From a virus: a DNA stretch of 64,000 bases. Every line of letters starts with the position of its first letter. Position 1 is the stretch's first letter. A program made the position numbers and the translations under genes. This document shows, one piece after another, positions 32,976 to 59,886 of the stretch. The stretch is taken from the IMG/VR virus record IMGVR_UViG_3300044697_000029, positions 20,250 through 84,249 of that record. The stretch is one strand, 5' to 3'. A model generated the notes under the pieces. The model saw nothing but the letters and a program-made list of their open reading frames with translations, had not been told where the DNA came from and ran no database searches.

Positions 32976-34403
32976 ATGAAGTTCCGCACCAAACTGCTCG
33001 GCGCTATTGGGCTGCTCGCTGTCATTGGCGTTGCCGGCGCGCACAGCCAAGGACTCCAGTACTACACCACTCTAAGCGGCAGCGAAGGCATCGCCGATCA
33101 GCTCAATCCGACCGGCGCCAGCTTCACCTCGGGTCTGGTGCATGCAACGTCGCAGGGCGTCAACGCTCAGACGGGGACCAGCTACACGGTCCTCGGCACG
33201 ACTGGCATTCCCCAATCTGGGGCCGCGCCGACCGGCGACATGGGCAAACTGGTCACGTTCAGCAACACAGGCGCAGTGGCGGTCTCGCTGCCACAGGCTG
33301 GTACGGCTGGATTTGAGGCGGGGAAATGGCTTGACGCTGAGAATCTGAACAGCGGCGCCGTCACGATCACGCCGACGACTTCGACCATCAACGGCGCTTC
33401 CACGCTGGTTCTCGATCAGAACAGGGGCGTCCGCATCTATTCGGACGGCACGAACTGGCAGATCATGGCTGGTGGTGGCGGGCTGCTCGGCACGCCGCTC
33501 ACGGTGCCTGAAGGAGGTACCGGCGCGGCGACGTTCACCGCACATGGTGTCCTGATCGGAGAAGGCGCTACCCCGATTGTGGCAGCGAGCGTTGGCGCAA
33601 CTGGCACCATACTGGCCGGCACGTCGGGCGCCGATCCGGCATTCACGGCGACCCCATCCGGCCTGACCTCGATCGAAGCGACCACGCTCAATGCCGGCCT
33701 CGCCACCGGCACTGCCGGCACAGTCGCGGTGTTTCCCGGCACGACGACGACCGGTAAGACGACTTTCACTGCGACGGCCAACAGCGGCAACACAACCACC
33801 AACATCAACACCGCCGCCCAGGCTGGCGCGCGCACCTACACCGTGCCGGATCAGGGCGGCAACGCCACCTTCCAGATGACGGGCGGCACCGTCAGTTCAA
33901 CGACCGGCATGACGGTGACTCCGCTGCCGCTGGTCAACATGAAGACCGTCGCCGGCCTTCAGATGACCGGCTCGGCGTCAAGCACGAACTGGGGCCTCGT
34001 CTATACTCCCGCCACCGGGAACTACCTGACCGGCACAGCGACCTCATCCGGCTCGACCTCCAACGTTGCTTCCTACGACATCGTGTTGCCGGCGAACTAT
34101 ATCGCCGGAACCAACATAACGCTGAAGGTTGCCTGCTATTACACGAACTCGTCCTCGACGGCCTCGGTCCATACAATGGCTGCGGCGGCCTATCTCAACG
34201 ATCCGGTTCTCGGCACGCAGGGATCGACGCTCATCGCTACATCGGCACAGACCTGTCCGATCACGACCGCAACCGCGCAGACCTTCACGATCACTGGCAC
34301 GTCGCTGGTCCCGGGATCCTACCTGACGCTCACCTTCTCGGCCGCGGTGACGAACGGCGGCGGCGCATCAACCGAGTTCCTGACTGCGGCGAACATCAAC
34401 TGA
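32976..34403 (+). CDS. Fibre/decoration-like protein with N-terminal signal peptide
   Basis: MKFRTKLLGAIGLLAVIGVAGAHS-Q; Thr/Gly-rich; fibre-like motifs SDGTNW and VPEGGTGA. Confidence 0.8.
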   Translation: MKFRTKLLGAIGLLAVIGVAGAHSQGLQYYTTLSGSEGIADQLNPTGASFTSGLVHATSQGVNAQTGTSYTVLGTTGIPQSGAAPTGDMGKLVTFSNTGAVAVSLPQAGTAGFEAGKWLDAENLNSGAVTITPTTSTINGASTLVLDQNRGVRIYSDGTNWQIMAGGGGLLGTPLTVPEGGTGAATFTAHGVLIGEGATPIVAASVGATGTILAGTSGADPAFTATPSGLTSIEATTLNAGLATGTAGTVAVFPGTTTTGKTTFTATANSGNTTTNINTAAQAGARTYTVPDQGGNATFQMTGGTVSSTTGMTVTPLPLVNMKTVAGLQMTGSASSTNWGLVYTPATGNYLTGTATSSGSTSNVASYDIVLPANYIAGTNITLKVACYYTNSSSTASVHTMAAAAYLNDPVLGTQGSTLIATSAQTCPITTATAQTFTITGTSLVPGSYLTLTFSAAVTNGGGASTEFLTAANIN

Positions 34404-34426
34404 GCCATCACGGAGAACCCCATCCC

Positions 34427-57972: not shown

Positions 57973-57996
57973 GTTTCCTCCGTTGAGGGCCATCAC

Positions 57997-59886
57997 ATGA
58001 AGCGATTCCTGCTCACGCTAATGCTTGCACTCTGGGCTGTGCCGGCTCTTGCCCAGGTTCCGGGCGGGGGCGGGACGGTCGCGACCGTCACGGATGGCAC
58101 AAACACCGTCAAGTTCCCGAGCGTGCTGGACTTCACGTCGGGCGCCACTGTGTCGAAAAGTGGGGACGCGGCGAACGTTGCCATTCCCGGCATCGGCAAC
58201 TGCGCGGCAAGCGGCTGCATCGCCTCCACCAACGGCACAGGCACCGGCACCACGCTCACCAACCCCACCCTTTCCGGCACCGTCACTGGCACGCCGACCT
58301 GGGCCAGCGGACAAACGATGCCGACCCTCACCCTGACAGGGACCGGCACAAGCACCCTGGGTTCCGGTATCACGTTCGACTATTCGGGTGGTGCGACGGA
58401 CACGCGGTATTTCTACATCGATACGTTCCTGACGCCATCCGTTTCCACGTCGCATATCTGGGAGCAGGACAATTCCTTCCTGACTTTGGAGCCTGTCAGC
58501 GGTGACGGAAACGCGTTGCTCACGGCGACGGAGTCTGGCGGCACGGCTACCGTCGTGATCAGCGCGGCGGGTTCCAGCTATCCGAACGGGACATATACCA
58601 CCTACACAGTTGGCGGCGGATGCACTGTGTCGGCTCAGGGAACTGCGACGATCTCAGGCGGCGCCGTGACCTCCGTCACCCAGCCCACCACGTCGGGCTG
58701 CACAGGCAACCCCACGGTGAACATTGAAATTGCCGTCGCATCCGGCGAGATCAATGTCACGCATGATCGCTTCGGCAACACGGCCGGCGCCTATGCTACC
58801 CAGGTCGAGGATCACGAGGACAGCAGTGAGAACAACGGCGCGATCATCAACCATCAGATGAACCTTTCGACCTTTCAGAACGACAGCAACGGATCGGTCA
58901 ACTCGCTCGCGTATTATGCGATCGCCCTGACAAACAACAACACAAACCCCGGTGCCATAAACCAGATGCTCGGGGTGGATTGCATTAACCCGAGCGGCAC
59001 CAAACCGAAGTCCATGTCGTGCCTCTACGACTCGATCACGTCGGGGATTGATTACATCGCGGGCGGTCTTGTGATCGGACGTACCTACGCGGGCAATCCA
59101 CAGACTCTCCAGATTTATGGACCGGACAACAGTGCCGGAACGTACGCGCTCTACATCGCGAACCTCGCCGGGACTCCGATCTTGACTGTCGATGATGGCG
59201 GCGGTGTCAACGCCGTGGATGGCACCCTTCGCGTCGGAACGAACGCCAGCGTCGGCGGCACCATGTATATCTATGGGTCCAGTTCCGGGAATGCGCAGAT
59301 ATCGGGCGGCACGAGTGGCACACTTACCAGCCCGTCGCCGGTCAATTTTTCCAATGCGACCATTCAATTGAGCGGGATATCCTCTGATGCCGGCAAGTCC
59401 GACGCTACGGTCTGCACCGTGACCGTAGGCGGCGGCGCACTCTATTCTGGCAGCGGCACCGGCGGACTCTGCCTGTCGACCTCGACGGCGCGCTACAAGG
59501 ACCACATCGAGGATGCCTTCGAGGGCTTCTCCGGTGGGTTGCATATACTGCGGGAGTTGTTTGCGCTGCGAACTGTGCACTTCACCTACAAGAAGGGGCA
59601 CGGCTTCGATCCGACGCACGTCTATTGGGGTTGGACGGCCGAGCAGATGCAGACCGTGTTCCCGGATTTGGTCGGGCATGATGCGGAAGGCAAACCGAAC
59701 TCGGTTGACATGATGGGCATGCTGCCGCGCGTCGTGGCGGCAGTGCAGGCCGGAGAATACCTCGTGCTCGGCATGCTGGCCGCCATGATCGTCCTGGCGC
59801 TCTACTGCGTGGGGCTGCACGCGCACGCCGTATCGCTGAGGCGCCGGGTGGCGGCGATCGAGGCGGTTATGCGGGCGGCTCAGTGA
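57997..59886 (+). CDS. Tail fibre/spike-like protein: signal peptide, peptidase S74 chaperone, C-terminal TM helix
   Basis: MKRFLLTLMLALWAVPALA-Q; STARYKDHI...F.YK...GWTAEQ...FPDLV; LVLGMLAAMIVLALYCVGL. Confidence 0.85.
   Translation: MKRFLLTLMLALWAVPALAQVPGGGGTVATVTDGTNTVKFPSVLDFTSGATVSKSGDAANVAIPGIGNCAASGCIASTNGTGTGTTLTNPTLSGTVTGTPTWASGQTMPTLTLTGTGTSTLGSGITFDYSGGATDTRYFYIDTFLTPSVSTSHIWEQDNSFLTLEPVSGDGNALLTATESGGTATVVISAAGSSYPNGTYTTYTVGGGCTVSAQGTATISGGAVTSVTQPTTSGCTGNPTVNIEIAVASGEINVTHDRFGNTAGAYATQVEDHEDSSENNGAIINHQMNLSTFQNDSNGSVNSLAYYAIALTNNNTNPGAINQMLGVDCINPSGTKPKSMSCLYDSITSGIDYIAGGLVIGRTYAGNPQTLQIYGPDNSAGTYALYIANLAGTPILTVDDGGGVNAVDGTLRVGTNASVGGTMYIYGSSSGNAQISGGTSGTLTSPSPVNFSNATIQLSGISSDAGKSDATVCTVTVGGGALYSGSGTGGLCLSTSTARYKDHIEDAFEGFSGGLHILRELFALRTVHFTYKKGHGFDPTHVYWGWTAEQMQTVFPDLVGHDAEGKPNSVDMMGMLPRVVAAVQAGEYLVLGMLAAMIVLALYCVGLHAHAVSLRRRVAAIEAVMRAAQ

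Follow-up and report, generated by a model that had tools for sequence, protein, structure and literature searches.

The window analysed here is a 64,000-nucleotide stretch (positions 20,250 to 84,249) of IMG/VR record IMGVR_UViG_3300044697_000029, which represents the 84-kb genome of an uncultured, short-tailed freshwater/peat phage. The phage is a podovirus whose head is BPP-1/epsilon15-like and whose tail is T7-like, and within its late operon lie four fibre-type genes. The features of the region, in window coordinates, are as follows.

23524-31382, plus strand: head module, with portal (23524-25365), capsid (29654-30709) and cement (30849-31382) genes, without leaders.
32976-34403, plus strand: P0001, 475 aa; predicted leader at residues 1-24 (nt 32976-33047), then a Thr/Gly/Ser-rich, fibre-like body with one Cys pair (387, 427).
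34427-35704, plus strand: P0002, 425 aa; predicted leader at residues 1-20 (nt 34427-34486), then a jelly-roll of the carbohydrate-binding-module type, with Cys pairs 145-249 and 331-342.
39377-41404, plus strand: P0003, 675 aa; predicted leader at residues 1-22 (nt 39377-39442), conserved N-domain from 23 to about 172 (nt 39443-39892), variable distal part.
41404-41976, 42524-43156 and 43160-44080, plus strand: three tail-adaptor (tubular A-like) paralogues, phrog_394, without leaders.
44096-48076, plus strand: nozzle (tubular B-like), 1326 aa, without a leader.
57997-59886, plus strand: P0004, 629 aa; predicted leader at residues 1-19 (nt 57997-58053), fibre body with four Cys pairs, Peptidase_S74 domain, C-terminal helix.
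60124-60952, plus strand: two membrane proteins directly 3' of P0004, one with about four hydrophobic helices (60124-60600), the other with a helix and a coiled coil (60587-60952).

The head module matched PF12236 (E 6.6e-87), PF20911 (E 9.7e-95) and Bbp16, with a capsid protein of the epsilon15/phiV10 type at about 39% identity. Relatives of the nozzle are annotated as tail tubular protein B or tail protein in podophages of Pseudomonas, Vibrio, Pelagibacter, Xanthomonas, Liberibacter and Bordetella, and the nearest prophages of this phage lineage are in Proteobacteria, with a related prophage in Rhizobium sp. BK313; our searches found no isolate that carries the proteins described here. The four fibre genes are set off by gaps of 11-24 nt or by overlaps, and their G+C resembles that of their neighbours. 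Crude scans found no promoter-like consensus sites in 29000-42000 or 55000-62000 and no terminator-like sites in the gaps flanking the fibre genes. Morons in tail regions, such as lambda lom and bor and the T1-like cor lipoprotein, are also exported and encoded among late or tail genes, but they are small, self-transcribed and unrelated to fibres, whereas these are fibre homologues of 425-675 aa that lack their own terminators and promoter-like sites, in a position conserved across the lineage. A moron identity was rejected on the missing promoters and terminators, tight spacing and neighbour-like base composition.

The fibre-type identity of these proteins is supported by the S74 domain of P0004, a fold match for P0002, and an N-domain with variable tails and conserved synteny for P0003. 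The S74 intramolecular chaperone of P0004 (PF13884, residues 498-559, nt 59488-59673) scored 24 bits, above the cut-off of 22 (E 4.8e-5), and its motif, STARYK (Ser496...Lys501), keeps the Ser and Lys of S-D-x-x-x-K with Thr replacing Asp; related loci have SSLRFK. Hydropathy marks about residues 586-608 (nt 59752-59820) as a hydrophobic helix, after which comes LRRR, and leader, helix and basic tail together predict a type I topology in agreement with the positive-inside rule. The AF2 model of P0002 (pLDDT 89.3), a protein with 988 relatives, matched annotated tail fibre proteins of isolated phages in BFVD (E 1e-27 to 1e-13, TM 0.5-0.69) and, in the PDB, CBM4/16/22 and the CBA120 tailspike TSP4; the modelled fold is a jelly-roll as in the distal parts of tail fibres. 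P0001 (637 relatives, the close ones mostly leader-bearing) matches phrog_15797 over residues 91-165, and in its mature form the N-terminus, Q..YYTTLSGSEGI, corresponds to the 'LTGxE' with which leaderless fibres begin. In P0003 the N-domain holds an invariant pair, Cys89/Cys104, and a hairpin pair, Cys159/Cys171, with four further pairs in the distal part. Leader and N-domain are all that its relatives have in common; the C-termini are swapped among PF12708, PF13229 and PF13884, so that pectate-lyase, beta-helix or S74 parts, depolymerase-like, stand behind a constant domain. The N-domain gave no Pfam or fold match to known podovirus tailspikes or fibres.

The initial annotation had read the ORFs at 32976, 34427, 39377 and 57997 as opening with basic residues, then a hydrophobic stretch and an A-x-small cleavage site before Gln. 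The translations confirm this, with a core of about 10 hydrophobic residues and a site of the small-x-small type. The leaders, each directly followed by Q, are MKFRTKLLGAIGLLAVIGVAGAHS in P0001 (24 aa, predicted cut AHS-Q), MKNLSLGAAWLILAGGVAFG in P0002 (20 aa, AFG-Q), MILRRLVALACTLVLAPALAWA in P0003 (22 aa, AWA-Q) and MKRFLLTLMLALWAVPALA in P0004 (19 aa, ALA-Q). They were assessed by a heuristic signal-peptide rule together with family-level conservation, the signal peptidase I criterion being a positive n-region, an uncharged hydrophobic core of 7-15 residues and small residues at -3 and -1. All four proteins show the Sec/signal peptidase I pattern by this rule, and the profile of the 87-member P0003 family concurs. 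When the rule was applied to every six-frame ORF of 100 aa or more in the 84-kb genome, 306 in all, P0003, P0004 and P0002 ranked within the top seven; P0001, which entered this ranking from a longer, upstream start, scored 6.5 from its ATG, in the form of the identical database copy P0056. The portal, capsid, adaptors and nozzle, said earlier to have no such N-termini, indeed fail the rule, as do the cement and internal proteins. At +1 all four proteins have Gln, not the Cys of a lipobox; Cys11 in the P0003 leader is preceded by just five hydrophobic residues, and the twin-arginine motif RRxF is absent from all four leaders. Lipobox-like leaders do occur in a few relatives. Each of the four ATG codons is either the first start past an in-frame stop (at 39329 for P0003) or the sole ATG 5' of conserved residues. 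P0005, the public call of the 39377 gene, starts at Met39 and cannot be right, since every relative conserves residues 23-38.

Whether homologues keep the leader was a check proposed at the outset, and many of them do. Across 87 distinct relatives of P0003, which follow a signal peptidase I profile, Lys or Arg makes up 29-39% at each n-region position, and acidic residues are almost absent there. Mean hydropathy is 2.0-3.1 at positions -16 to -7, where sequence entropy is high and charged residues are very rare, and the cleavage region shows Pro at -6 (44%), Ala at -3 (85%; small residues 99%), a bulky residue at -2, Ala, Gly or Ser at -1 (95%) and Gln at +1 (100%). The great majority of viral and prophage loci in which the P0003 motif was found have a start codon 18-26 codons before it. 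The N-domain was never found leaderless in this set; residues +1 to +16 rank with the best-conserved in the family, and a conserved Met stands 17 residues into the mature N-domain. Leaders were present in 97 of the top 150 relatives of P0002, and leaderless relatives start with M-[SA]-G-[YF]-FTNG, exactly at the predicted cut of the leader-bearing ones (ALA-AGFFTNG). These comparisons indicate that the leader is real and under selection, and that it is a modular add-on. Secretion-type leaders and paired cysteines on tail-fibre-type proteins recur in more than 60 related viral contigs and prophages, and in 13 long related loci the segment from head genes to adaptors holds about 1-5 leader-bearing ORFs, with no leader on any core gene.

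The mature proteins P0001 to P0004 contain 2, 4, 12 and 8 Cys, mostly in nearby pairs, as first counted. Beyond the positions listed above for P0001 and P0002, these are 89/104, 159/171, 189/192, 319/324, 575/585 and 623/643 in P0003, and 69/74, 209/235, 329/342 and 473/492 in P0004; a further Cys604 lies within the C-terminal membrane helix of the released chaperone of P0004. The mature Cys count was even in 170/176 leader-bearing relatives vs 62/108 leaderless ones (Fisher p 1e-16); as the family members counted are related to one another, this and the statistics that follow overstate independence. By family, the leader-bearing counts were 83/85, 48/50 (the P0001 family) and 39/41. Both members of the P0003 hairpin pair were present in 23 relatives, both absent in 13 and mixed in none; for Cys145/Cys249 of P0002 the corresponding figures were 52, 15 and none, and this pair occurred in 52/58 leader-bearing but 0/9 leaderless members (p 1e-7). 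Such near-perfect parity suggests that enzymes pair the cysteines in an oxidising compartment. The ORFs scanned revealed no Dsb, signal peptidase or glutaminyl cyclase encoded by the phage itself.

The first half of the earlier proposal, Sec export with disulfide folding, is strongly supported by comparison, through the leader profile, Cys parity, co-occurrence of Cys pairs, leaderless starts at the cut and the predicted type I topology of P0004. Export, signal-peptidase cleavage and disulfide bonding of the four fibre-type proteins are thus well supported predictions from sequence. The second half, docking onto particles at lysis, is plausible because every receptor-binding-type protein bears a leader and the P0003 family both adjoins and co-diverges with the adaptors; the secreted or surface alternative that was also raised stands beside it. 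The stop codon of P0003 and the start of the first adaptor gene overlap, and the order N-domain gene, adaptors 1, 2 and 3, nozzle is found in more than 50 related loci. Mean identity is 0.56 for the N-domain vs 0.56 and 0.53 for adaptors, and its divergence parallels that of adaptor 3 (Mantel r 0.64). P0003 shows two traits of podovirus tailspikes and fibres that have a particle-binding N-domain, a conserved N-domain with exchangeable distal domains and inheritance with the tail module, and the adaptors are candidate docking partners for its N-domain. Profile matching of the Pfam/PHROG type found no leaderless fibre-like protein in the late operon.

Our preferred reading is that the four genes encode the host-recognition proteins (tail-fibre/tailspike type) of the podovirus, and we put this reading, with the whole route including docking, at roughly 40%. 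The genes are transcribed inside the late operon, as tight spacing and the lack of promoter-like sites show. Precursors with a 19-24-residue Sec leader would cross SecYEG unfolded, and signal peptidase I would cut after AHS, AFG, AWA and ALA, as sequence and family conservation suggest, leaving an N-terminal Gln that may cyclise. Host Dsb oxidation would then form consecutive short-range disulfides (1, 2, 6 and 4 pairs), consistent with parity and covariation. The stages from translocation to disulfides are probable. From its architecture, the 57997 fibre would be anchored in the inner membrane by its post-S74 helix, trimerise and cut itself at Ser496. Export would keep the fibre proteins apart from particles until lysis. 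More speculatively, particles would be built in the cytoplasm without fibres, lysis proteins would open the inner membrane and bring the fibres together with the particles, and the 39377 protein would dock through its N-domain on the adaptors or nozzle. This docking is the preferred next step, held tentatively and unproven. The two membrane proteins beyond P0004 (no Pfam match for either) are, by position and hydropathy, candidates for the lysis proteins that breach the inner membrane. The fullest picture, which we hold more loosely, is of a two-compartment particle: head, tail core and internal proteins would be cytoplasmic, and the entire host-recognition apparatus would be Sec-exported, trimmed and disulfide-stapled in the periplasm, with one fibre trimerising on a membrane-anchored S74 chaperone, the halves meeting once the inner membrane is opened.

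Parts of this route have counterparts in known phages. Podovirus tailspikes and fibres (P22 gp9, T7 gp17, epsilon15 gp20, K1F endosialidase) are, as here, encoded in the tail module, and they join an unchanging N-domain to a C-terminus that varies (depolymerase or beta-helix), with S74 as an autochaperone; they are joined late to particles, and the docking step resembles the late, in-vitro-competent addition of P22 tailspikes and T4 fibres. Unlike the leader-bearing proteins here, they lack a signal peptide and fold in the cytoplasm. In filamentous (Ff) phages, pIII has a Sec leader, disulfides made by DsbA and a C-terminal membrane anchor before assembly, and the same three features (leader, paired Cys, C-terminal helix) are predicted in P0004. 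Ff phages assemble by membrane extrusion, in contrast to a tailed, DNA-packaging phage with a lysis cassette, and there is no sequence relationship. To our knowledge, tailed phages assemble solely in the cytoplasm, which counts against the proposed route. The statement in the initial annotation that no such pathway is described holds for tailed phages, as literature searches found no published description of fibres exported or matured in this way, but exported phage-like fibres of the same architecture have been published for Bdellovibrio (PMC10769870).

Those fibres bear on an alternative that we consider unlikely but the nearest competitor, in which the four proteins are exported and matured in the periplasm and never enter the virion. 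They would act at the infected-cell envelope or in the medium, as receptor-destroying or receptor-masking enzymes that ease release and block adsorption of progeny or rivals to the dying cell, or as adhesins or decoys. Every line of export evidence fits this equally, and the depolymerase-like C-termini suit receptor destruction. The particle would recognise its host through another protein or through the nozzle, which is about 500 aa longer than T7 gp12 and could have a receptor-binding function of its own. The N-domain, never leaderless, could equally be envelope-directed, and some P0003 relatives, about 165 aa long, comprise nothing but the N-domain, an unusual form for a receptor-binding fibre. 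In the closest published analogue, the mosaic adhesive trimer (MAT) fibres of Bdellovibrio bacteriovorus (Caulton et al. 2024, PMC10769870), a signal peptide is followed by a beta-rich N-domain of about 130 aa that is conserved and then by a phage-like beta-helical fibre or tip that varies; a C-terminal S74 chaperone/protease is optional. This layout recurs in the P0003 family, a match at the level of architecture; MAT genes are chromosomal in a predatory bacterium and act on its surface, whereas P0003 lies in a podovirus structural operon beside adaptors. Matrishin et al. (2023, PMC10367356) read as envelope modifiers, of unknown function and without mention of tail fibres, genes of Porphyromonas gingivalis phages whose predicted signal peptidase I leaders expose an N-terminal Gln; the likeness to the four proteins lies in leader and Gln, and those hosts are Bacteroidota, in contrast to the Proteobacteria-related lineage here. 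Against an off-virion role, it would leave the phage without a recognisable fibre or tailspike, as every candidate is leader-bearing; the N-domain gene is fixed beside the adaptors, translationally coupled and co-diverging; the bodies share ancestry or structure with the virion fibres of other phages; and signs of independent transcription are absent.

It is improbable that the proteins form two pools, with export partial or ceasing late, so that cytoplasmic precursors enter particles with or without the leader, their Cys oxidising after release, and the exported pool serves a separate envelope function. This would reconcile real leaders with the established cytoplasmic assembly, other phages are known to make a single depolymerase in both soluble and virion-bound forms, and the conserved Met might fit an internal start. 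Yet a Shine-Dalgarno-like site preceded none of 29 internal Met+17 codons, an internal start with such a site lay near the cleavage site in just 6/44 genes, the conservation of +1 to +16 implies use of the full mature N-terminus, and the Cys parity again points to enzymatic pairing. That the hydrophobic N-termini are instead structural or membrane-active segments of cytoplasmic fibres, buried in the tail or used in infection, with an incidental likeness to signal peptides, is the default expectation for tailed phages and draws on the heuristic nature of the leader evidence and on the short helix that the P0002 leader forms in its AF2 model, but it is very improbable, as that helix has a pLDDT of 46-53 in a model otherwise at 89, a core of about 10 residues is too short for a stable membrane span, a buried helix should be conserved like the next domain and the leader is the most variable stretch with only -3, -1 and +1 fixed, leaderless homologues start exactly at the cut, and Cys parity and the Cys145/249 pair track the leader.

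If the fibres of this lineage do mature in the periplasm and then join particles, tailed-phage assembly would not be purely cytoplasmic, host Sec, LepB and Dsb would be host factors for infectivity, and lysis would double as the final assembly step. The fibres could then bear disulfides (and, in other hosts, glycans) beyond the reach of cytoplasmic folding, and an origin for the exported phage-like adhesins of Bdellovibrio would be suggested. In practice, active receptor-binding proteins of this type would require periplasmic or oxidising expression, and gene callers that clip leaders hide the feature, as for the 39377 gene in the public collection. If the proteins instead act off the virion, they would represent a large, unrecognised class of phage envelope effectors encoded within structural operons and mis-annotated as tail fibres.

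In the translations of the four fibre-type genes of the late operon, the putative Sec signal peptides read as the initial annotation had described them; cleavage is predicted to follow AHS, AFG, AWA and ALA, with Gln at +1 in each.

Leader-bearing fibre-type genes of the window
32976..34403 (+), P0001, 475 aa
34427..35704 (+), P0002, 425 aa, jelly-roll protein
39377..41404 (+), P0003, 675 aa, leader, conserved N-terminal domain (N-domain) and variable distal part
57997..59886 (+), P0004, 629 aa, fibre with an S74 domain

The ATG of each gene is either the first possible start past an in-frame stop or the sole ATG upstream of conserved residues. 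Leaders were evaluated by family conservation and by a simple signal-peptide rule, not a trained predictor, run over the genome's full set of 306 six-frame ORFs; three of the four rank in the top seven, and the fourth protein scores 6.5 under the same rule when read from its ATG. The public protein collection starts the P0003 gene at Met39 (637 aa), clipping the leader and 16 conserved mature residues (window 39377-39493). Conservation shows this call to be wrong: every relative conserves residues 23-38. Similar clipped or over-extended starts were seen in the relatives P0038 and P0021, and automatic annotation therefore hides the leader.

Relatives of P0003 (47 in a large protein collection and 64 loci in viral contigs, plus prophages of Rhizobium sp. 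BK313 and of two MAGs, one Aliidongia and one Salinisphaerales) have in common only the leader and the 115-150 residues that follow it. A complete signal-peptidase I signature was found in the leader of 87 distinct members. Among these the n-region is 29-39% Lys/Arg per position, with acidic residues nearly absent; the ten positions from -16 to -7 have mean hydropathies of 2.0-3.1 and almost no charged residues; and the cleavage region has Pro at -6 in 44%, a bulky residue at -2, Ala (85%) or another small residue (99% in all) at -3, Ala, Gly or Ser at -1 in 95%, and Gln at +1 in 100%. Within the protein, sequence variability peaks in the hydrophobic core, and the domain from +1 is among the most conserved parts, a pattern that points to a cleaved targeting peptide, not a structural helix; at about 10 residues, the core could not stably span a membrane. 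The Bacteroidota "Q-rule" was rejected as the cause of Gln+1 in view of the nearest prophages, which lie in Rhizobium and the two MAGs. Because of these same prophages the host range is probably mainly proteobacterial; some members of the lineage are low in G+C. Gln+1 is thus a conserved feature left without a phylum-specific explanation.

The P0002 and P0001 families behave alike. In the P0002 family (988 representatives) a leader is present in 97 of the best 150, and leaderless relatives start M-[SA]-G-[YF]-FTNG, exactly at the predicted cut of the leader-bearing ones (ALA|AGFFTNG). In the P0001 family (637 matches) leaders occur on close relatives, and distant relatives have classic leaderless fibre N-termini followed by a shared module of about 100 aa.

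The cysteines follow the leader. As first proposed, those of the predicted mature parts are paired, with 1, 2, 6 and 4 nearby pairs in P0001, P0002, P0003 and P0004; one extra Cys lies within the P0003 leader and another within the C-terminal membrane helix of P0004. Mature Cys counts are even in 83/85 leader-bearing members of the P0002 family, 48/50 of the P0001 family and 39/41 of the P0003 family, versus 62/108 leaderless homologues, which is near chance (pooled binomial p 8e-43, Fisher p 1e-16, values that overstate independence since the members are related). Covariation was used in place of Cys-Cys distances. In the P0003-family hairpin GP..S...D..[C]WNN..GTL..D[C]G both Cys are present 23 times, neither 13 times, and a mixed state never occurs; Cys89 and Cys104 of the N-domain are invariant. 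Cys145 and Cys249 of the P0002 family likewise occur together in 52 members and are missing together from 15, and no member has just one. Counted after correction of two heuristic misses, this pair occurs in 52/58 leader-bearing and 0/9 leaderless members (p 1e-7, overstated by kinship). The export signal and obligatory Cys pairing thus go together, and the direction is unambiguous despite kinship.

Several features indicate that these proteins are of fibre type. The P0002 model is confident (pLDDT 89.3, pTM 0.83; first 20 residues pLDDT about 50) and matches the predicted folds of proteins annotated as tail fibres in isolated phages, including BcepNazgul, FoX4, Atu_ph04, cyanophages and others (E 1e-27 to 1e-13), as well as PDB entries for CBM4/16/22 jelly rolls and a CBA120 tailspike. 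An outer-membrane beta-barrel, considered for P0002 since it ends AFSARF, was rejected: the family ends SAEL, and the model, a confident one, shows two jelly rolls as in tail fibres. Leaderless P0002 relatives of other phage lineages have classic fibre N-termini; their loci, found via the leaderless relative P0278, confirm the body as a fibre module and bear only on those other lineages. In the P0003 family the N-domain stays constant, and the C-termini behind it are pectate-lyase-like, beta-helix or S74. The N-domain model itself has a pLDDT of 61.7 and is confident only at residues 55-120; fold searches with it yielded nothing meaningful (best Z 3.2; best Foldseek E 0.35), and an ESM Atlas search returned weak viral leads only.

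P0004 bears a fibre/spike autochaperone, a Peptidase_S74 domain above the Pfam cut-off with Ser496 and Lys501 within STARYK. Unusually, this domain is followed by a hydrophobic helix (about 586-608) and then LRRR. Leader, helix and LRRR together give a predicted type I topology that fits the positive-inside rule, most of the protein lying outside and the basic tail inside; without export, the basic tail would fall on the wrong side. At related loci, S74 fibres are short and leader-bearing; a Cys pair immediately precedes their cleavage site, and a coiled coil replaces the helix.

The window (bases 20250-84249 of a single 84,249-bp contig) comes from an uncultured podovirus, because its late genes include a T7-type portal and an epsilon15-type capsid protein, isolates are distant and without a DNA match, and near-identical DNA is found in metagenomes. 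In the capsid protein the closest isolated phages reach about 39% identity, and in the nozzle about 33%; blastn found no isolated-phage DNA match to the head region, and tblastn found none of the four proteins in isolated phages. DNA near-identical in at least half of sampled words occurs in freshwater, lake, peat and marine metagenome runs from at least 13 studies, and the phage is therefore widespread.

Structural and packaging genes of the window
21084-21890 (+), Terminase_6N, and 22488-23141 (+), Terminase_6C: large terminase in two ORFs about 600 bp apart
Late genes, portal, T7-type (PF12236, E 6.6e-87)
Late genes, capsid protein, epsilon15-type (PF20911, E 9.7e-95)
Late genes, cement protein, BPP-1-type (Bbp16)
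Late genes, three paralogous tail adaptors (phrog_394)
Late genes, nozzle, 1326 aa
Late genes, three large internal proteins (weak SLT match and ART-PolyVal domain)
51727-55242 (+), 1171-aa internal virion protein with an ADP-ribosyltransferase-like ART-PolyVal stretch (PF18760, 32 bits against a cut-off of 31)

The remainder of the contig encodes replication, recombination and methylase functions of phage type. An IS1595-family transposase lies within the genome (12721-13761 (-), DDE_Tnp_IS1595, E 2.7e-36), and a Thg1-like tRNA-His guanylyltransferase domain (PF04446, E 1e-30, 61813-62859 (-)) is encoded directly past the late operon on the opposite strand. An endonuclease VII/HNH-type ORF (38110-38877 (+), PF02945, E 5e-23) interrupts the structural operon among the leader-bearing genes and looks like a homing endonuclease.

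As the initial annotation had held, core virion genes are without such leaders: none passes the simple rule. Across 13 long loci with third-position G+C of 0.3 to 0.9, about one to five leader-bearing ORFs lie between the head genes and the adaptors, and 0 core genes have a leader. The order N-domain gene, adaptor 1, adaptor 2, adaptor 3, nozzle recurs in more than 50 loci, and in the window the P0003 stop overlaps the adaptor 1 start. Mean pairwise identity is 0.56 for the N-domain and 0.56 and 0.53 for adaptors; N-domain and adaptor 3 co-diverge (Mantel r 0.64) as tightly as adaptor and adaptor (0.61). Promoter-like sites and flanking terminators are absent around the four genes and gaps are tight (11-24 nt), so these are not self-transcribed morons. 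No phage-encoded Dsb, signal peptidase or glutaminyl cyclase was found in the ORFs scanned, which cover the small ORFs in part.

Leader plus N-domain alone (about 165 aa) occurs at L016, L023, L051, L049, L050, L056-L060 and L064-L066, where it is either the only copy, immediately upstream of adaptor 1, or paired in tandem with a long one. About 2.5 kb upstream, several of these loci encode a short S74 fibre with a leader, and the two genes could represent an adaptor-plus-fibre split.

We infer, with a probability of roughly 0.8, that these fibre-type proteins are exported, cleaved and disulfide-bonded. This part of the original proposal is strongly supported by the leader profile, the leaderless starts and the Cys parity; the proposal's final step is more tentative. 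The mature fibres would dock onto particles when lysis mixes the compartments, a step we prefer because the phage is without a leaderless receptor-binding candidate, because the N-domain behaves like a particle-binding domain, and because late addition of spikes and fibres succeeds in vitro for P22 and T4. The whole chain, from export through docking at lysis, is plausible and falls short of an even chance.

The main rival, which we consider somewhat less likely, is an off-virion role at the envelope. In its favour, the mosaic adhesive trimer (MAT) fibres of Bdellovibrio have the same architecture and act at the cell surface (PMC10769870), and the P0003 N-domain is never leaderless and sometimes stands alone. 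Leader-bearing Porphyromonas phage genes of unknown function have been interpreted as envelope modifiers (Matrishin et al., 2023; PMC10367356). A two-pool model, in which export is partial and a cytoplasmic pool is built into particles, is improbable; a conserved internal start that would give a cytoplasmic isoform was looked for and has no support. That the hydrophobic N-termini serve something other than export is very improbable, being at odds with the conservation pattern. Full-text literature searches gave no description of signal peptides on tailed-phage fibres, in keeping with the earlier statement that no such pathway is described.

Two other proteins of this phage have distinctive N-termini. 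A 177-aa protein 3' of the nozzle (48506-49039 (+)) begins MSLPALALGGLALSAVGQVG, which is hydrophobic and uncharged, without a basic n-region, and suggests a membrane-active ejection protein rather than a signal peptide. The 183-aa protein at L068:2457-3008 (genome coordinates, upstream of the window) begins MIHLTRRRLLAGTAALPLPLMLGGCPAG, with the look of a leader that combines a twin-arginine motif and a lipobox. It would make five exported proteins in all, this one with its gene outside the late operon.
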